IMG/VR virus record: IMGVR_UViG_3300032334_002267
Location: 9,310-73,309 of that record
Strand: one strand, 5' to 3'
Length of the DNA: 64,000 nucleotides
Source of the DNA: a virus
Taxonomy: Duplodnaviria > Heunggongvirae > Uroviricota > Caudoviricetes
Below, piece by piece: positions 8,003 through 52,194 of this stretch. The notes under the pieces were generated by a model. It worked only from the letters and a program-made list of their open reading frames with translations. It did no database searches and had not been told where the DNA came from. Position 1 is the stretch's first letter. Every line of letters starts with the position of its first letter. The position numbers were made by a program, and so were the translations under genes.

Positions 8003-9784
8003 ATGAATAAAGTTAACAAAACAATTGAAGTATTAACTGATTTTGAGCACATAATTAAAAGACCCACTATTTACGTTGGGAGCGTTAAGAGAACTGAAGA
8101 GGTTCTTCCCGTTGTTGAAAATGGAATTATAAAAAGTGTTTCTAAGGAGCACTCAGTAGGTATGTACAAACTATTTGATGAGGTTTTTTCTAATTCAGTG
8201 GACGAAGCAAAGAGAATGTCCGCTCCAATGAAAAAAATCACAGTAGAGGTAAGCACTAAAGATAATAGTGTAGCCATAACAGATACTGGAGATGGATTTA
8301 CAAACGGATCTGCTATTAATAAAAAGAGTGGACTCAGTAATATTGAAACAGCAGTTTCCATGCTAAGAGCGGGGTCTAACTTCGATAATGACAACATCTC
8401 GGAAACACTAGTTGGTACAAACGGTATGGGGGTGAGTCTAGTAAATGCACTTTCAGATCTTTTTGAGATTGAGACTGCAAACGAGAGTGAGGTTTATCAG
8501 CAATCTTGGGAATCGTTTAAAGCAACCACAGCAAAAGTTTCTAAGAGAGCAAAATCAAAAGCAAAAGGAACCACAGTAAGCTTTATTCCCAATGGTAATG
8601 TCTTCGATAATACAAAATGGGATTATAGAACAATCAAGTCTTATCTTTGCCTAAAGAAAAGAGTGCTTGAGACAGAGACTAAAACAGCAAGTCTTAAAAT
8701 AGATTTTATTTGGGATGGTAAGAATGAATCGATAACAAATTCTCTAAATCCTGAATGGACTGCTAAAACACCAATAGGAGAAATTTTGATCTGGGAGAAA
8801 CAATCGGAATCCGGATCTTTCTCTTTTGTAAACAGTGCTCTATGTACAGGTATACACCAGAAGATAGTTTTGGATAGAATAAATGCACAGCTGGAGGATT
8901 CGTTAGGACACCATTTCTATGACATGCTTCTTATTCTGAATCTTTCTCCTGGTATAGTTAGATTTGGAGATCAGAATAAAACCAAATTTGTTTCAAAAAG
9001 AGAAGAAGTTGAACCCACAATAGCTAAGCATTTTGATCAAGTTCTTGCTAAATTTTTTAAAAGCGAAACTTTTAAGAGCATCAAGAAACTAGTGGATGCT
9101 AGAAAGAAGGAAGTCGAGTTAAAGAAAATCAGAAGAGATAAAAAATCTATTAGAGTAAAGCACTCAAATAAATATTTCCCTCCCGCAACAGCCCGTGCAG
9201 AAAATCTATTTATAGTGGAAGGACTTAGTGCGATGGGATCTATATTACAGAAGAGAGATCCTAGAAAAGATGGAGTTTATGCTCTCAAGGGTAAGATTAA
9301 AAATGCTAGGAGTCTCTCAGATCTTTCGCAGAATAGAGAGATCTTAGAGCTTATGCAGATACTGAATTTAGATCCGGAGGAACACCATCTTCAGTGTCCA
9401 TTTGAAAGAGTGGTTATCTCAACAGATCAGGATCCCGATGGGGCTCACATTACTTCTCTTTTAATAAACCTTTTCTATTCTTGGTTCCCGTGGATGATTA
9501 AGCAGGGGAGAATCCAGATATTAGAAACCCCGCTTGTTAGCGTTGGAGATAAGTCAAAGAAATACTACTATTCTCTAGATGAGTTTAAAAGAGTTTCTAG
9601 TAAATCAGAAAGAAGTAACGTAAGGTACTTAAAGGGACTAGGTTCATTGTCATTGGATGACTGGGATCACGTTATGAAAAACAAGAGAATTATATCCCTG
9701 GTAGAAGACAAGAAAACTAAATACCACCTGGACATGGCTTTTGGTAAATCCTCAAGTGAAAGAAAAAAGTGGCTTAGCTCTTAA
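8003..9784 (+). CDS. Type IIA DNA topoisomerase, ATPase/TOPRIM subunit (GyrB/ParE, T4 gp39+gp60-like)
   Basis: EHII.RP..YVGS, DEVFSNSVDE, GTNGMG, VEGLSA, LKGKI.N, DQDPDG. Confidence 0.95.
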   Translation: MNKVNKTIEVLTDFEHIIKRPTIYVGSVKRTEEVLPVVENGIIKSVSKEHSVGMYKLFDEVFSNSVDEAKRMSAPMKKITVEVSTKDNSVAITDTGDGFTNGSAINKKSGLSNIETAVSMLRAGSNFDNDNISETLVGTNGMGVSLVNALSDLFEIETANESEVYQQSWESFKATTAKVSKRAKSKAKGTTVSFIPNGNVFDNTKWDYRTIKSYLCLKKRVLETETKTASLKIDFIWDGKNESITNSLNPEWTAKTPIGEILIWEKQSESGSFSFVNSALCTGIHQKIVLDRINAQLEDSLGHHFYDMLLILNLSPGIVRFGDQNKTKFVSKREEVEPTIAKHFDQVLAKFFKSETFKSIKKLVDARKKEVELKKIRRDKKSIRVKHSNKYFPPATARAENLFIVEGLSAMGSILQKRDPRKDGVYALKGKIKNARSLSDLSQNREILELMQILNLDPEEHHLQCPFERVVISTDQDPDGAHITSLLINLFYSWFPWMIKQGRIQILETPLVSVGDKSKKYYYSLDEFKRVSSKSERSNVRYLKGLGSLSLDDWDHVMKNKRIISLVEDKKTKYHLDMAFGKSSSERKKWLSS

Positions 9785-27953: not shown

Positions 27954-29510
27954 ATGAAACTAGAAGATTTAACACATGAACAAATTTCAGATCTCTCCGC
28001 GATTTACTGGAACAGAGATCTAAGCTGGGACGACAGAATGAAACAGCTAAGTCAATACCTAAACAAATCAGAAAGAACTGTACAGACCTGGATTTCCAAA
28101 CTCGGAATAACAGAAAAATCAATAACAGATTCACCTCAATATGCAGAGGCTAAGAAAAGAAAATTTGATAAGAAGAAGAAAAAATTTATTATAACTTGGG
28201 CTCAGAATGACACGCAAGTTCATGAAGACTTCGTTACCAACCTAGAAGCTTATGCTAAGCACATAGACGCATCTGTTCATGTCATAGCAGGAAGATATAA
28301 AAATCCCACATCAGTTTCAACTGACACCAGCTATGAGTCCTGGTCGGAAAGGATAGAACAGTATTTAGATGCTGGACGTCACGAAATACATAAGCACATG
28401 TGGATCATGTCAGATATTAAAATCCAACCTACTGCAGTGAATCCAATGACGGGTCTTGAAGGAATGAGTGGCGTTAATTCCTGTGTCTTCGGATCTCCTA
28501 AAGTTCAAATGGAAACAATCCCTGTTTTAGAAGGTAGTCTACCTAAGTTAATGCTAACAACAGGAGCTTGTACTCTTAGAAATTACACAGACTCTAAAGC
28601 GGGTAAGAAAGGGGAATTCCATCACGTTCTTGGTTTTGTGGTTGTCGAAATAAAAGATTCCTCTGTTTTCTTTGTTAGACAGGTAACTGCAACAGACGAT
28701 GGAAGTTTCACAGATCTTTACAACAAGGTTCAAAATGGAAAGGTTACTAAAGTTAAAAAGTTGGCTGCTGCCATTCTTGGAGACTTGCACTATGGACAGC
28801 ACGACGAAAGAATTATAGACAAGACCCTTGAGATGCTTAAGGATCTAAAACCAGATCATCTGGTTCTTCATGATGTTTTCGATGGTCTTTCTATAAATCA
28901 TCACGAATCAAACGATCCGTTTATTCAATACAAAAGAGAGATGGACGGAACCAACTCTTTAAGAAACGAGGTTGATCAGATGCTTAACGGTCTTAAAGAT
29001 TTTGAAAAATATAATGTGGTTGTGGTTAGAAGTAATCACGATGACTTCTTAGACAGATGGCTGAAATCTACAGATTGGAGAAAAGCCGGAACACTAAAGA
29101 ATTCTTTAGAGTATATGGAATACAGCTCTCTACTTCTTAAGGGCGAAGCACCAAACGGAGTTATTCCATATCTGATCAATAAGAGATATCCTAAATTCAA
29201 AACTTTAGGAAGAAGTGACAGCTACGTTGTTAATGGCTGGGAGCTAGGACAGCATGGCGATATTGGATCGAATGGAACTAGAGGATCTCTTTTGCAATTC
29301 AGAAAGCTGAACACCAAGATAGTTGTTGGCCACTATCACTCACCAGGAAGAAAGGATGGAGCTTTAGCGGTTGGAACATCAACTAAGCTAAGAGTAAATT
29401 ACAACCTAGGTCCAAGTGGATGGCTTCATTCGCATATTATCATCCATGAAGATGCTAAGGCTCAGCATATCAATTTTATTAAAGGCGAATTTACAACTCT
29501 TAAACCCTAA
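27954..29510 (+). CDS. N-terminal HTH-like domain plus calcineurin-like metallophosphoesterase/nuclease
   Basis: SERTVQTWISKLG (HTH-like); GDLHYG, HDVFDG, SNHDDF, QHGD, GHYHSP. Confidence 0.8.
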   Translation: MKLEDLTHEQISDLSAIYWNRDLSWDDRMKQLSQYLNKSERTVQTWISKLGITEKSITDSPQYAEAKKRKFDKKKKKFIITWAQNDTQVHEDFVTNLEAYAKHIDASVHVIAGRYKNPTSVSTDTSYESWSERIEQYLDAGRHEIHKHMWIMSDIKIQPTAVNPMTGLEGMSGVNSCVFGSPKVQMETIPVLEGSLPKLMLTTGACTLRNYTDSKAGKKGEFHHVLGFVVVEIKDSSVFFVRQVTATDDGSFTDLYNKVQNGKVTKVKKLAAAILGDLHYGQHDERIIDKTLEMLKDLKPDHLVLHDVFDGLSINHHESNDPFIQYKREMDGTNSLRNEVDQMLNGLKDFEKYNVVVVRSNHDDFLDRWLKSTDWRKAGTLKNSLEYMEYSSLLLKGEAPNGVIPYLINKRYPKFKTLGRSDSYVVNGWELGQHGDIGSNGTRGSLLQFRKLNTKIVVGHYHSPGRKDGALAVGTSTKLRVNYNLGPSGWLHSHIIIHEDAKAQHINFIKGEFTTLKP

Positions 29511-30088
29511 TGATAGATCTTAGTAAATATAAAGCAATAGCAGGGGTTGACGAAGTAGGCCGTGGGGGTCTCAGTGGCCCGGTAGTTTCTGCTTGTGTCA
29601 TTCTACCTGATGATTTTAGGGATTCTAGAATAAAGGATAGCAAGCTAATTAAAAGCATTAAGAAAAGAGAAGAGATAGAGAAGGTAATAAAAGAAAATGC
29701 TATCTCATGGGGCATAGGAGCAAGTTCTCCTCAGGAGATAGATCAATTTAATATTCTTCAGGCAACTTTTATCTCTATGAAAAGAGCCATAGACTCTTGC
29801 TCTACACAGCCTGATTTTCTCTATATCGACGGAGATAAATTTATAGGTCATAAGGAGATTCCTTACGAATGTGTAATCAAAGGGGATTCTAAAATCCTCT
29901 CAATTTCTGCGGCTTCCATACTGGCTAAAGTATATAGAGATAGACTTATGCAATCTATAGCAGCAGAATTTCCTCAATACCTTTGGGAGAAAAATATGGG
30001 TTATGGAACATCAGAACACATTAAATCAATAAGAGAAACAGGAATAACTAAACATCACAGAAAAAGCTTCTGTACAAATTTTATTTAA
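29510..30088 (+). CDS. rnhB: Ribonuclease HII
   Basis: GVDEVGRG, DSK, IDG, KGD..ILSISAASILAKVYRD, GYGT..H. Confidence 0.96.
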   Translation: MIDLSKYKAIAGVDEVGRGGLSGPVVSACVILPDDFRDSRIKDSKLIKSIKKREEIEKVIKENAISWGIGASSPQEIDQFNILQATFISMKRAIDSCSTQPDFLYIDGDKFIGHKEIPYECVIKGDSKILSISAASILAKVYRDRLMQSIAAEFPQYLWEKNMGYGTSEHIKSIRETGITKHHRKSFCTNFI

Positions 30089-30092
30089 ACAT

Positions 30093-30428
30093 ATGGAAAA
30101 CTTAAACAACGAGATTACAACACAGGAATTTGAACAAGGAATGGAAAACGACACGATGCCAATGCCTTCTATCGAGTCTAATTATCAAAAATTCAAACAA
30201 CCGGAATGGGTGTTTCAATTTGATGACGAGGAACCTACTGTTTTTGCTTGGTCAACGGACCCGGAAGAAAAAGCTCAGGTTAATCTACACCTAACTGGTG
30301 ACAGCCAATGCAATGTCATCTTCAAATCTGCTAACGGTAGACAGATGAGAATTTTTTCTAGAGAGATTACGGAGCCAACTTTAAAGATGCTAGCTCAAGA
30401 CGGAAACGTGGAAGTTGAAGAAAATTAA
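30093..30428 (+). CDS. Hypothetical protein
   Basis: 111-aa ORF. Confidence 0.7.
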   Translation: MENLNNEITTQEFEQGMENDTMPMPSIESNYQKFKQPEWVFQFDDEEPTVFAWSTDPEEKAQVNLHLTGDSQCNVIFKSANGRQMRIFSREITEPTLKMLAQDGNVEVEEN

Positions 30429-30461
30429 AAACCATTTGGTTATATACTCTTAAAAAACTAA

Positions 30462-30923
30462 ATGAAGTCCAATTATTCCTTCACTGCGGAGCTCATCTCC
30501 AATAAAAAATTCACGGAGTCCCAGCTAAATGACATAAAGAACGAGATAGAGACTCGGGAGGATTTAGCACAATTGCATTCGGTATTTCTACGCTATATAG
30601 AGATAAATTTTAGCGGACACATAGAAATATACGTTGAAGATTTTGGATTTGACATCGATCTTTCTTCAGACATAGAGATAATGGTTTCTGAGATAGATGG
30701 TATAATACCAGGGGGATGGTCAAACGATTCCAAAATTGAATTCTATATAGAATTCCCAGCAACAAACCTAGTCTGGTATAAAGAAGATATGAAGTGGAAT
30801 TTTACCTCTTCAAATTCACCTAAGAGTGATTTTTTTGCTAGCGATGGTTGGGAAGAACCAGAGAAAGATGATTTTTATCTATACGATTCACCAGATTACG
30901 ATGAAAGTGATAACGATTGGTAA
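30462..30923 (+). CDS. Acidic hypothetical protein
   Basis: 153-aa ORF. Confidence 0.7.
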   Translation: MKSNYSFTAELISNKKFTESQLNDIKNEIETREDLAQLHSVFLRYIEINFSGHIEIYVEDFGFDIDLSSDIEIMVSEIDGIIPGGWSNDSKIEFYIEFPATNLVWYKEDMKWNFTSSNSPKSDFFASDGWEEPEKDDFYLYDSPDYDESDNDW

Positions 30924-30957
30924 TTTGGATCAGATAGATGATTAATCATATATAAAA

Positions 30958-31038
30958 TATTGTATTGAAAGGTGCCTTTCGTACTTAGTGTCCCAGGTCA
31001 AAATGGCCTTAGAGTTGTTTGAAAGAGCAGCAATGGGA
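30958..31038 (+). ncRNA. Structured 5' leader: long-range pairing arm (30958-30984) plus a three-way junction (30991-31038)
   Basis: TCCCA/TGGGA closing stem, GGTCA-AAA-TGGCC hairpin, GTTGTTT-GAAA-GAGCAGC hairpin with GNRA loop. Confidence 0.55.
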
Positions 31039-31063
31039 TTTTAAAAAAAAGAAAAGGTAAAAA

Positions 31064-31885
31064 ATGAAAAACAAAAACACAGGGGTAAACAGTACCCCAC
31101 AAGCTTGGATAGCCGTATCCAACAACAGACAAAAAATCTACGGCGCAAAGAATGATCTAGTTTATCTAGACGCAGGACAAGAGTTTCAAATTGAACTCTA
31201 CAACCCAACTTCCACGTCCTATCTTGCAAAAATCTATCTGAACGACAAGTTGATTAGCACATCAGGTTTGGTTATTAAACCAGGTCAGAGATACTTCTTG
31301 GATCGCCATATAGATGAGCAAAGAAAACTTCTTTTTTCCACATATTCAGTGGATGACAACGAAGAGGTTAAGGAAGTAATCAAAAACAACGGTAAGTTAA
31401 AGGTTGAATTCTACCAGGAAAATACTCCTAACTGGAATTCAATATCAACTGGCACTGTAACCTGGACAAACCCAAATTACGTAACTCCTCCAATAGTCTG
31501 GGCGACCCACAATTCCTACATCACCAACACCGGAGGATTATCGGGGAATCTAGCAAATCTCAGCGGAGGTGCAACATTGAATGGCATTAATGCAACGTAC
31601 ACAACAAACTCTTTCGTTAACCCGTCGTTTAACAATTCATCCATCTCTAGTAATACCTTAGAGACAGGAAGAATAGAAAGAGGCGGAAACTCCAATCAAG
31701 ATTTCGGTAAAGACTATGGCAATTATTCTTTCTATTGTGCTTATAAATCAGAGTACCAAATACTTCCGAGGTCAGTTAAGCCTGTGGAGGTTACAGAGCT
31801 CAGAGAATACTGCACTGAATGCGGATCTAGAATCAAAAAGAAAACCTGGAAATTTTGTCCATCATGTGGGGAATCTCTAGGATAA
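31064..31885 (+). CDS. Hypothetical protein with beta-rich N-terminal domain and C-terminal zinc ribbon
   Basis: GQEFQIELYNPT, KPGQRYFL.R; YCTECG...WKFCPSCG. Confidence 0.85.
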   Translation: MKNKNTGVNSTPQAWIAVSNNRQKIYGAKNDLVYLDAGQEFQIELYNPTSTSYLAKIYLNDKLISTSGLVIKPGQRYFLDRHIDEQRKLLFSTYSVDDNEEVKEVIKNNGKLKVEFYQENTPNWNSISTGTVTWTNPNYVTPPIVWATHNSYITNTGGLSGNLANLSGGATLNGINATYTTNSFVNPSFNNSSISSNTLETGRIERGGNSNQDFGKDYGNYSFYCAYKSEYQILPRSVKPVEVTELREYCTECGSRIKKKTWKFCPSCGESLG

Positions 31886-31893
31886 TTTAATTT

Positions 31894-31919
31894 GTACGGG
31901 AGGCACCTTAAATACAATA
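31894..31919 (+). repeat. 3' arm complementary to 30958-30984
   Basis: GTACGGGAGGCACCTT-A-AATACAATA pairs with TATTGTATT-GA-AAGGTGCCTTTCGTAC (two G-U pairs). Confidence 0.8.
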
Positions 31920-31972
31920 CACCCCGAAATTAAATTCCAGATAGCCCATACAATATTTAAAAGATAGAAGTT

Positions 31973-33928
31973 TTGAAAGTAGTTTATATTACTCCCCATC
32001 TCTCGACTGGGGGAATGCCAGAGTATCTAAAAAACAAAATAGAAAAGATAAAGGACGATGTGGAGATATGGGTTCTTGAAAAAAATCACGAGAAAACATA
32101 TAACACAATCCGCAAAAGGATCGAATCTTTAATAGGACAAGATAGAATAATAACTTGGGGAGAGATGCCTCAGAAACTTCTACTTGATAAGATTACAGAA
32201 ATAGATCCTGATGTGATCCATTTCGAGGAGCCTTCAGAGGAGTTTGTGCCAGACTATCATCTTGATAAAATATATTCTGATGAGAGAAGATATAGCATTT
32301 TTGAAACGCTCCATGATTCTTCATACAACGCTAAGGAAAAGATTTATCTTCCTGATAAATTTATTATGGTTAGTCCTTGGCAGGTGAATATTCTATCAGA
32401 TCTTAAAGTTCCTAATGAAGTTATTGAACACCAGTTACCCGAGGGAAGATCTAGAGACACAAATAAATCTAGAGAACTCCTAGGTTTAGACCCGAGTAAA
32501 AAACACGTGGTCCAGATAGGAATATTTACTCCCAGAAAAAATCAGAAAGAAACTGCAGATTTAGCTAAAAATTTTCCTGATGTTCAATTTCATTTTATCG
32601 GAACATTAGCAGATAATTACAGATGGTATTGGGAGCCTATAGTTAGGAAACTTCCGGAGAATTGCAAGATCTGGGGAGAAAGAGATGATGTGGATCTTTT
32701 TTATCAGGCTGCAGACCTTGTAATATTTCCATCAATAGCTTTATTCAATGACAAAGAGACAAGTCCTCTAGTTATAAAGGAGGCTATCTCATGGGGAAGC
32801 CCATTGTTATTAAGAAACCTTCCTGTTTACGTTGACATGTATCAGGAATCAAAAAATATAAAATTTATGTCAGATAAAAGAGAAGAAAACATAGAGATAT
32901 TAAAAGAGCTTCTAAGCACAAGGGTAGAGGTAGCACAGGAGGATTTATTCAGAGCCAGCTTTAATCCAGATGACAATAAGATAAGCATAGAATACTCAGG
33001 AACCACCCCGATAGGAAATGTTTTCGTTTCTGTGAAAGATCGGGACTCTAATGCCTGCATATACGGTTTTAATGTTGAAGCAAATTCACAAGGATCCGGT
33101 TGGTGGTGTATACCAATTCCTAAACAACATTTCGACTTTATGGGGAACCCTAATTTTACTGGATTCAAAATAGAGTTCTATAAGGATAGAGTGGATTCTT
33201 CACCTATCTATACTCATATAATAGATCTCAAAAAAAGCATTAATAAAAAGAAGATAATTTCAAACGGATACATCAACTTTGATCCAGTGTTTGTAAACTA
33301 TACCCAATTTTTCGTTGATGGAATTTATAATAATTTCTTTGCAGGTTATAGAATAAATTCTGCTATAGATGTTGGTGCAAATGTTGGACTTTTCACAGAG
33401 TGGGTTTTAGATAGATTTGGATCTGATACTTTTGTATTAGGAGTTGAACCAAACTCTGTGGCTGCTAAAGCCTTTGTTGCTATGCATGGAGAAAGGACAA
33501 ATGTTAAGTTTTCAGAGGTAGCACTTTCTGACACATCGGGAGATGAAATAGAAATGTTAATCAATCCCGAAAACACTCTAATCTCAAGTATAGAGGGAAC
33601 AGGAAGTCAGTACACGGAAAAGCAAATAGTTAAAACAAAAACTCTAGCTGATCTTATGACTGAATATGGACTTGATGAGGTTGACCTTTTAAAGGTTGAT
33701 GTAGAGGGAGCCGAGTATCAGATATTTAGTTGCTTGTCTCCTGAGGATATTAGAAAAAGATTCAAACACCTTTTAATAGAATTCCATAACAATCAGGGAA
33801 GAGCATCTGAGTTGATTAAGAAAATAAGAAGTGCAGGATATAGTGTTGATTTAAGAGACGATGACACTAGATACAGCACAGATGAAAATAATGATAGAGG
33901 TACAATCTTCGCAACAAGAATAGACTAA
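31973..33928 (+). CDS. GT4 glycosyltransferase fused to an FkbM-family methyltransferase
   Basis: HLSTGGMP, RKNQ, ETSPLVIKEA; IDVGANVG, LLKVDVEGAEY; TTG start. Confidence 0.9.
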   Translation: MKVVYITPHLSTGGMPEYLKNKIEKIKDDVEIWVLEKNHEKTYNTIRKRIESLIGQDRIITWGEMPQKLLLDKITEIDPDVIHFEEPSEEFVPDYHLDKIYSDERRYSIFETLHDSSYNAKEKIYLPDKFIMVSPWQVNILSDLKVPNEVIEHQLPEGRSRDTNKSRELLGLDPSKKHVVQIGIFTPRKNQKETADLAKNFPDVQFHFIGTLADNYRWYWEPIVRKLPENCKIWGERDDVDLFYQAADLVIFPSIALFNDKETSPLVIKEAISWGSPLLLRNLPVYVDMYQESKNIKFMSDKREENIEILKELLSTRVEVAQEDLFRASFNPDDNKISIEYSGTTPIGNVFVSVKDRDSNACIYGFNVEANSQGSGWWCIPIPKQHFDFMGNPNFTGFKIEFYKDRVDSSPIYTHIIDLKKSINKKKIISNGYINFDPVFVNYTQFFVDGIYNNFFAGYRINSAIDVGANVGLFTEWVLDRFGSDTFVLGVEPNSVAAKAFVAMHGERTNVKFSEVALSDTSGDEIEMLINPENTLISSIEGTGSQYTEKQIVKTKTLADLMTEYGLDEVDLLKVDVEGAEYQIFSCLSPEDIRKRFKHLLIEFHNNQGRASELIKKIRSAGYSVDLRDDDTRYSTDENNDRGTIFATRID

Positions 33929-52186: not shown

Positions 52187-52194
52187 GATATATA
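52187..52194 (+). promoter_or_regulatory. GATATATA box (putative late promoter)
   Basis: Intergenic, upstream of the leader-bearing ORF 52200. Confidence 0.6.

Follow-up and report, generated by a model that had tools for sequence, protein, structure and literature searches.

A 64,000-nucleotide (nt) stretch of viral DNA, positions 9,310 to 73,309 of the IMG/VR virus record IMGVR_UViG_3300032334_002267 (Caudoviricetes), is referred to here as the window and is part of a 154-kb contig that is ~55% complete. It carries a gene for a 273-amino-acid (aa) protein that is flanked by two complementary segments, referred to as the 5′ arm and the 3′ arm. In the messenger RNA (mRNA) of this conserved late gene of a giant phage, the first bases are predicted to pair with the bases just past the stop codon. 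The features of the locus are as follows, with RBS denoting ribosome-binding site, UTR untranslated region, and ORF open reading frame.

30948–30955, + strand: promoter box ATATATAA, phage late-type; predicted transcription start ~30959
30958–30984, + strand: 5′ arm of the long-range helix; its 3′ part, 30973–30980 (UGCCUUUC), is the proposed anti-RBS core
30991–31038, + strand: three-way-junction leader; P1 30991–30994 with 31035–31038; P2 hairpin 30995–31009; conserved junction UAGA(G); P3 hairpin 31014–31031
31051–31066, + strand: A-rich ribosome-binding region GAAAAGGUA (31051–31059) and AUG (31064–31066); pairs with 30973–30980 when the 5′ UTR is folded alone, unpaired when the 3′ arm is present
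31064–31885, + strand: ORF of 273 aa; N-terminal Ig/MSP-like beta sandwich, disordered N/S/T-rich linker, C-terminal zinc ribbon
31894–31919, + strand: 3′ arm of the long-range helix; starts 9 nt past the stop codon and contains the RBS-like purine run GGGAGG
31953–31962, + strand: ATATTTAAAA, which nearly matches the promoter box; the next gene starts at TTG (31973), 20 nt further on

The original prediction, made from the letters of the window, had described the arms as pairing over 9 bp, a 2x1 internal loop, and 16 bp, with two G-U wobbles. This is borne out by the sequence of positions 30958–30984 and 31894–31919, where the two non-Watson-Crick pairs are both U-G on the + strand, and by a repeat search, which returned the arms as a 16-nt block (30969–30984 with 31894–31909) and a 12-nt block (30958–30969 with 31908–31919). 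The 16-nt core is confined to the two arm sites in the 64-kb window, apart from one chance match with three mismatches. In the minimum free energy fold of the 996-nt RNA, the arms are paired with each other and the RBS is open (z = −4.8 relative to shuffled sequences). Since the first ~25 nt pair with the first nucleotides of the 3′ UTR, the ORF, the leader, and the RBS would form a loop hanging from one long helix. The complementary segments lie in the 5′ and 3′ UTRs of the same gene, as in mRNAs with cis 5′ UTR–3′ UTR pairing. When complementarity between upstream and downstream flanks is scored for 209 ORFs of the contig, the enclosed gene reaches 44, the second best 29, and the median gene 18; because it is the sole outlier, the arm feature is specific to this gene and not a genome-wide property.

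A promoter-like box had also been claimed just before the 5′ arm, and it proved to be a recurrent motif. ATATATAA, which we take to be a late-type box comparable to the TATAAATA of T4, occurs 27 times in the contig, with at least 20 copies in intergenic positions (2.3 expected) and 11–33 nt before start codons on the same strand. Copies in the window begin at 131, 3654, 4622, 10713, 12717, 23501, 36932, 48615, and 52188, among others. For several genes, such as that at 52188, the ATG comes only 11–12 nt past the first base of the box. This spacing puts the start of transcription ~4 nt past the box and suggests late mRNAs with little or no leader. For the enclosed gene, the predicted start is thus at ~30959, the second base of the 5′ arm, and the resulting 5′ UTR of ~105 nt is much longer than that of other genes. 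A similarly placed box is conserved before the 5′ arm in relatives, and in distant clades the 5′ arm begins after a TTGACA-17-TATATT promoter. Where the window has the near-match ATATTTAAAA before the next gene, relatives carry CTATAAATA.

Comparative evidence for the helix and the leader

Homologs of the 273-aa gene are carried by hundreds of Bacteroidota-type huge phages. Protein-guided scans located at least 182 viral and 293 metagenomic stretches with the gene, on contigs of up to 430 kb, and tblastn added huge phages of 462–735 kb and the Lak megaphages. Among these, the phages with the largest genomes fall within the “Mahaphage” clade, whose members infect Bacteroidetes and include the Lak phages (PMC7162821). 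A search of GenBank phage DNA with positions 29500–33900 gave no match. In phages that are 55–65% identical at the protein level, the gene keeps a fixed place and orientation behind the same upstream ORF.

From the homologous loci, 116 distinct flank sets were extracted, and a locus was counted as arm-bearing if an ungapped complementary core of at least 9 bp was found at the same two places. By this measure, a segment just after the promoter pairs with a segment just past the stop codon in 103 of the 116 loci. The ungapped cores span 9–19 bp (median 12), and their 5′ segments end 75–96 nt before the ATG. If gaps are allowed, the helix begins 1–18 nt past the stop codon (median 7) and has a median of 22 pairs, with 69% of arm-bearing loci reaching 20 pairs; these counts include AT-rich extensions that may be chance.

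Although the positions of the arms are constant, their sequences are not. Sorting by eye yielded ~23 arm types, for example GGUGCCUUUCGUAC, AGGAAAGAGCC, CCUUUUCCCGUU, GACCUUGUGGUU, ACGUUAACUC, GGAACCUCGU, AUCGUGAUUGA, UAGAGCCUCGCUC, and AUCCUUCUCUCC, and one hand-picked representative of each was used for duplex energies. In statistics computed with scripts written for this analysis, which do not model kinship between loci, the mean energy of the 5′ × 3′ duplex across the 23 representatives was −21.2 kcal/mol for cognate arms versus −7.4 kcal/mol for permuted arms, and none of 20,000 permutations was as low. For each 5′ arm, the cognate 3′ arm ranked first or second of the 23. Single compensatory steps are seen as well. 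For example, a G-C to A-U step separates locus L003 from L004 and is found again in L011; in L102, a change of U to A is answered by one of A to U, with L106 as the uncompensated intermediate; and a G-C/G-U/A-U series occurs within the GACCUUGUGGUU arm type. The duplex permutations and the single steps both point to compensatory maintenance of the 5′–3′ UTR pairing. Covarying arms in homologs were what the original prediction had proposed to look for.

At locus L192 (LR756501.1, the 735-kb phage), the word AUCUC, ~110–130 nt before the ATG, can form a local hairpin with GAGAU, which lies a few bases downstream, in addition to pairing past the stop codon; such an arrangement may represent a variant in which a local competitor is present.

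Directly inside the 5′ arm, the leader conforms to the three-way junction that had been claimed there: in an alignment of 44 sequences, double compensatory changes occur in all 12 predicted pairs. Of the alignment cells, 97% are paired, versus 41–50% when the partners are slid by 1–3 columns, and the junction contains near-invariant U.GA and A residues. A covariance model of the leader (R1) finds one strong copy in the contig and likewise one in each of five genomes of 270–430 kb, four of which are at least 99% complete; it also matches phages of 462, 636, and 735 kb and, weakly, Lak-B5. An independent pattern scan of viral contigs with a 15-mer gave mostly chance matches; only 14 of 80 were true leaders, and all 13 complete leader matches lay directly before a homolog of the enclosed gene. 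The junction may serve as a scaffold or as a protein-binding site.

The original prediction recognized no named family in these elements, and this stands. An Rfam search of positions 30900–32000, up to E = 10, gave no meaningful match; the only one was to a C/D small nucleolar RNA (12.6 bits, E = 6.3), inside the ORF and outside the leader and arms. At gathering thresholds, Rfam reported for the window only a transfer-messenger RNA (tmRNA), away from this locus. Judged from comparative sequence data, the leader and arms together make up a previously undescribed RNA motif. Several known kinds of element were set aside by eye, as their defining core sequences, size, or genes are absent: hammerhead and other small ribozymes, a purine-riboswitch-like junction, a group I intron with an ORF in a loop, a retron, a tmRNA-like closure, and insertion sequences (ISs) or miniature inverted-repeat transposable elements (MITEs). 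Formal testing of any of these candidates consisted of the Rfam and Pfam scans.

RNA helix, DNA repeat, or processing stem

In 49 of the 103 arm-bearing loci, the stop codon is followed first by the 3′ arm and then by a canonical terminator, and with the promoter box before the 5′ arm, this fits the claim that the arms bracket the transcript. By promoter and terminator motifs, the arms are predicted to fall inside the transcription unit in every case, and the enclosed message would be a late, monocistronic mRNA. In another 22 of the 103 loci, a run of at least four T residues directly follows the 3′ arm and no separate terminator hairpin is present. The window has no such run, and in its own clade no terminator can be recognized past the 3′ arm. 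Just beyond this arm, ahead of the promoter of the next gene, the clade has a conserved word, CGAAATT(T/A)TAT, at 31923–31935 in the window and at the same place in L003–L011.

The loci with a T-run raise the idea of a split intrinsic terminator, which would form when the newly made 3′ arm is bound by the 5′ arm just ahead of a U-run, so that the polymerase is released. This is highly improbable: the combination of helix and U-run is missing from the window itself, an ordinary terminator is found further on in the 49 loci, and long-range annealing is slow relative to polymerase escape. The same 49 loci bear on two of the functions put forward originally, mRNA circularization and an excisable RNA element with an ORF in its loop. 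Because a terminator follows the 3′ arm, the RNA ends would not be juxtaposed, and since no skipped or inverted DNA form was found either (see below), neither function is supported.

The wobble pairs of the window had been read as a sign of selection on an RNA duplex rather than a DNA inverted repeat, and the wider set of loci agrees. The arm cores contain 14 G-U versus 5 A-C oppositions, and of 75 arm pairs, the sense-strand helix is the more stable in 38 and the antisense helix in 21 (Wilcoxon p = 0.002). With the predicted placement of the arms inside the transcription unit, this excess of G-U and this strand bias favor RNA.

What recommends a DNA-level explanation, in which the arms would serve an invertible or mobile cassette in recombination or be bound as a pair by a DNA-binding protein, is that inverted repeats of 10–27 bp flank a single gene and leave its promoter outside. 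Cassettes that are invertible or bounded by terminal inverted repeats are marked by the occurrence of both orientations, or of presence and absence, and by a recombinase or transposase alongside; no such marks were found here. Contigs assembled from four DNA runs cover the region and contain neither inverted, skipped, nor excised joints; these contigs, from close strains, have zero substitutions within the arms or the junction. Pfam detects no recombinase or transposase domain in the enclosed ORF or in the six neighboring ORFs scanned, and PHROGs returns nothing for the enclosed ORF and its two upstream neighbors. In addition, the place, orientation, and upstream neighbor of the gene are constant in phages that are only 55–65% identical, and the arm sequences vary among clades, unlike crossover sites. 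Together with the pairing statistics given above and the consistently predicted position of the arms within the transcription unit, these observations make a DNA-level repeat scarcely credible. The case is instead firm, as far as sequence comparison can make it so, that a selected RNA helix would connect the 3′ UTR of a single late mRNA with its 5′ terminus, beside a conserved, gene-specific three-way junction.

An RNA helix of this kind could still be a processing stem, as the original prediction had suggested, in which a host RNase III cuts the duplex and so releases or matures the mRNA from longer late transcripts. The stems that flank 16S and 23S ribosomal RNA (rRNA) are RNase III substrates of this sort, and in them too, flanking sequences pair and enclose a long functional RNA in a loop. 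They differ in that the phage stem encloses a translated ORF and most of the phage helices are shorter than two turns, and cleavage is known for the rRNA stems only. The length of the window helix (25 bp with an internal loop), the 20 pairs reached in most arm-bearing loci with gapped extension, and the lack of a terminator in the window's clade, where a processed 3′ end is plausible, all fit such a role, and in icaR of Staphylococcus aureus, RNase III is known to act on a 5′–3′ UTR duplex (Ruiz de los Mozos et al. 2013, PMC3868564). Against it, the ungapped cores are just 9–19 bp, the AT-rich extensions may be chance, and processing is unneeded in the many clades with their own promoter and terminator. 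The RNase III family PF14622 of Pfam has no match in the phage's own, ~55% complete, contig. RNase III processing has little or no support and is quite unlikely.

Predicted pairing of the 5′ arm with the ribosome-binding site

The 5′ arm has a second potential partner, which escaped the original prediction and is described here for the first time. When the 5′ UTR of the window is folded alone, UGCCUUUC (30973–30980) pairs with GAAAAGGUA (31051–31059), and similar folds give arm:RBS pairing in 14 of 17 arm types. The words involved are clade-specific: GCCUUU:AAAGGU; GUGGUGC:GCACUAU, which extends across the start codon; UUAACU:AGUUAA; CCUC:GAGG; and UCGUGAUU:AAUUAUGA. In the 462-kb phage (L190), a GGUCUCA:UAGAGAUU pair was recognized by eye. 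This complementarity appears to covary. The mean energy of the 5′ arm × RBS duplex is −6.9 kcal/mol for cognate versus −4.8 kcal/mol for permuted partners (0 of 20,000 permutations), and the expected number of arm:RBS pairs, 5.1 with cognate arms, drops to 2.9 if arms are exchanged among types and to 2.4 if they are shuffled. A test for words common to the 3′ arm and the RBS was weakly positive (4.65 versus 4.24 nt; 216 of 20,000 permutations).

The two pairings of the 5′ arm are mutually exclusive, and the one with the 3′ arm is the more stable by far (−21 versus −7 kcal/mol). In whole-transcript partition-function folds, which cover 15 of 21 types, addition of the 3′ arm reduces arm:RBS pairing to zero in all 15, as the 5′ arm switches to the 3′ arm as its partner. 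For the window, the accessibility of the RBS goes up from 0.63 to 0.89. An upstream strand complementary to the RBS or start codon is the mark of an RBS-sequestering leader, and it is present here with short helices of 4–9 bp. Complementarity of the 5′ arm to the RBS points to a translation switch and not a processing stem, and the evidence for it is less strong than that for the pairing of the two arms.

The reading preferred here, with a probability of roughly one half, is that the locus encodes an RNA device, with the 5′ arm acting as an anti-RBS for which the 3′ arm is the decoy, so that translation would be licensed on complete transcripts. In nascent RNA, or in RNA that has lost its 3′ end, the 5′ arm would close on the RBS over the three-way junction and keep ribosomes off. 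Once transcribed, the 3′ arm would form a far longer helix with the 5′ arm, serving as an RBS look-alike or decoy. This helix would free the RBS and bury the 5′ end in a duplex beside the terminator, and the closed mRNA would probably be protected against end-dependent nucleases.

A stricter version, which is offered more tentatively, is a “complete-message checkpoint” in which the 5′ end shuts the RBS until the 3′ UTR pulls it away, and only full-length, intact transcripts are translated. Ribosomes terminating 1–18 nt before the helix would then reopen it each round, and in some clades the same helix, with its U-run, would also end transcription. If true, this would be the first mRNA of a prokaryotic virus shown to need 5′–3′ closure for translation, and one conserved in the largest known phages.

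The main alternative to a switch is a pure stabilizer. On this view the helix does no more than keep end-dependent or leader-cutting nucleases away from the 5′ end and leader and maintain structure at the 3′ end, and the match to the RBS arises incidentally, from arms rich in pyrimidines and an RBS of the AAGG type. The predicted first nucleotide is where the 5′ arm starts, the helix adjoins the terminator, and RBS accessibility is nearly constant in many arm types, as such a role would have it. There is also a precedent in the hbs gene of Bacillus subtilis, where a 14-bp helix that joins the 5′ UTR to the 3′ UTR of one mRNA limits RNase Y cleavage (Braun, Durand and Condon 2017, PMC5737220). 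What a pure stabilizer leaves unexplained is the position of the 3′ arm, 1–18 nt past the stop codon, and the existence of arm types that are not Shine-Dalgarno (SD)-like and have matching non-SD words at the start codon. Furthermore, a local 5′ hairpin would serve equally well. Stabilization as the sole function seems rather unlikely.

A number of observations weigh against an anti-RBS and decoy device. The arm:RBS helix is only 4–9 bp long, the ranks of the cognate RBS among the 23 representatives are only moderate, and the arm types are not independent, because a CCUU:AAGG core is common to many of them. In equilibrium folds of the whole transcript, RBS accessibility is little altered in most types. 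The transcript ends are themselves inferred from motifs, and the window's clade is the one that lacks a recognizable terminator past the 3′ arm. Bacteroidota-type hosts make little use of SD pairing, so what marks the RBS may be an absence of structure and not the AAGG word. About 11% of the loci have no clear 3′ arm within 50 nt of the stop codon, namely the L042/L043/L137 clade, the L063/73/74/88 clade, L064, L065, and L084. In L042 and L043, a weaker, G-U-rich candidate partner lies ~85 nt into the next ORF (−17.6 and −16.4 kcal/mol, respectively), and the equivalent in L137 is unconvincing. Finally, the Lak phages have no convincing arms, and their leader match is weak (E = 0.055).

Elements of the proposed switch are familiar from other systems. 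In the rpoS leader, a self-inhibitory helix hides the RBS, and the small RNAs DsrA, RprA, and ArcZ open it with Hfq. In both cases a second strand pairs with the inhibitory strand and opens the RBS; the opener of rpoS is a separate small RNA, whereas that of the phage would be built into its own 3′ UTR. In the T4 genes e, soc, and 49, the RBS of the late gene is hidden in a hairpin with upstream sequence, so that translation of a late gene is likewise controlled by transcript architecture. Relief in T4 comes from a late transcript that starts inside the hairpin, in contrast to the phage locus, where it would come from a partner ~900 nt downstream.

Closer still are the few bacterial mRNAs with pairing between their own UTRs. 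The hbs and phage mRNAs are both small and monocistronic, with a 5′–3′ UTR helix that acts, or in the phage would act, in cis on the fate of the leader. However, hbs is a single bacterial gene for which no deep covariation has been reported, and its helix overlaps an RNase Y site and not the 5′ terminus or the RBS. The phage helix, on the other hand, is predicted to start at the first nucleotide, abuts a conserved three-way junction, and has a 5′ strand that can pair with the RBS. In icaR, a segment of the 3′ UTR pairs with the 5′ UTR (PMC3868564; reviewed in PMC7821165), and both mRNAs have mutually exclusive pairings, involving the RBS region and part of the 3′ UTR, that govern, or in the phage would govern, translation. 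For icaR, the anti-RBS (UCCCC) is located in the 3′ UTR, which is repressive, and the duplex is cleaved by RNase III. In the phage, the anti-RBS is at the 5′ end and the RBS look-alike in the 3′ UTR, and the predicted effect of the 3′ UTR is therefore activation. RNAIII-hld is a further close precedent for cis 5′–3′ UTR pairing (PMC7821165).

In total, just three cis 5′–3′ UTR pairings in bacteria are listed in that review, none with deep comparative support (PMC7821165). The pairing described here is kept through ~23 arm sequences at >100 distinct huge-phage loci, including relatives of the Lak phages and of the 735-kb record holder, and few long-range mRNA helices in prokaryotic biology would have better support. 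Its features suggest a new RNA switch that would act on both translation and stability. Moreover, the three-way complementarity of 5′ arm, RBS, and 3′ arm yields a precise hypothesis that is testable by mutation, namely that the 3′ UTR activates translation.

The enclosed protein and neighboring genes

The AlphaFold model of the 273-aa protein (mean pLDDT 72) consists of an N-terminal beta sandwich, a disordered linker, and a C-terminal zinc ribbon. The last of these agrees with the original assignment of a zinc-ribbon protein; the Pfam zinc ribbon PF13240 matches only weakly, below its cut-off (24 versus 25 bits). Searches for protein homologs returned hypothetical proteins throughout, and PHROGs gave no match for the ORF or its two upstream neighbors. 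Fold searches yielded only generic Ig/MSP-like sandwich neighbors (Z ≤ 6.5). With Foldseek against viral models (BFVD), E-values go down to 1e-8 with high root-mean-square deviation, and the matches are uncharacterized proteins from giant viruses, nudiviruses, nimaviruses, and iridoviruses, among them one with the annotation immediate-early protein ICP-18. The helix and leader flag this as a late protein whose synthesis these phages would gate tightly.

The Lak-A1 homolog (L187; MK250016.1, positions 595–1413) has one in-frame TAG, at codon 10, and is open only if TAG is read as Q. Such a reading fits the alternative code of Lak phages (PMC8346664).

Further upstream in the window, at 22921–23394 (+ strand), lies the Rfam tmRNA call mentioned above, a full-length match to RF00023 with 70.9 bits against a gathering score of 47. 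ARAGORN, run over 22500–23800, reports neither a tmRNA nor a tRNA there, and the match may represent a phage-borne tmRNA of unusual form.

At positions 27954–30088, an RNase HII gene comes immediately after a gene whose 518-aa product weakly matches calcineurin-like phosphoesterases. Across related huge phages the two are 75–86% identical, and the small ORFs from there up to the zinc-ribbon gene are far less conserved. Downstream, the next gene (31973–33928, TTG start) encodes a fusion of a group-1 glycosyltransferase with an FkbM-type methyltransferase, and it is swapped for other genes in L008 and L012–L015.

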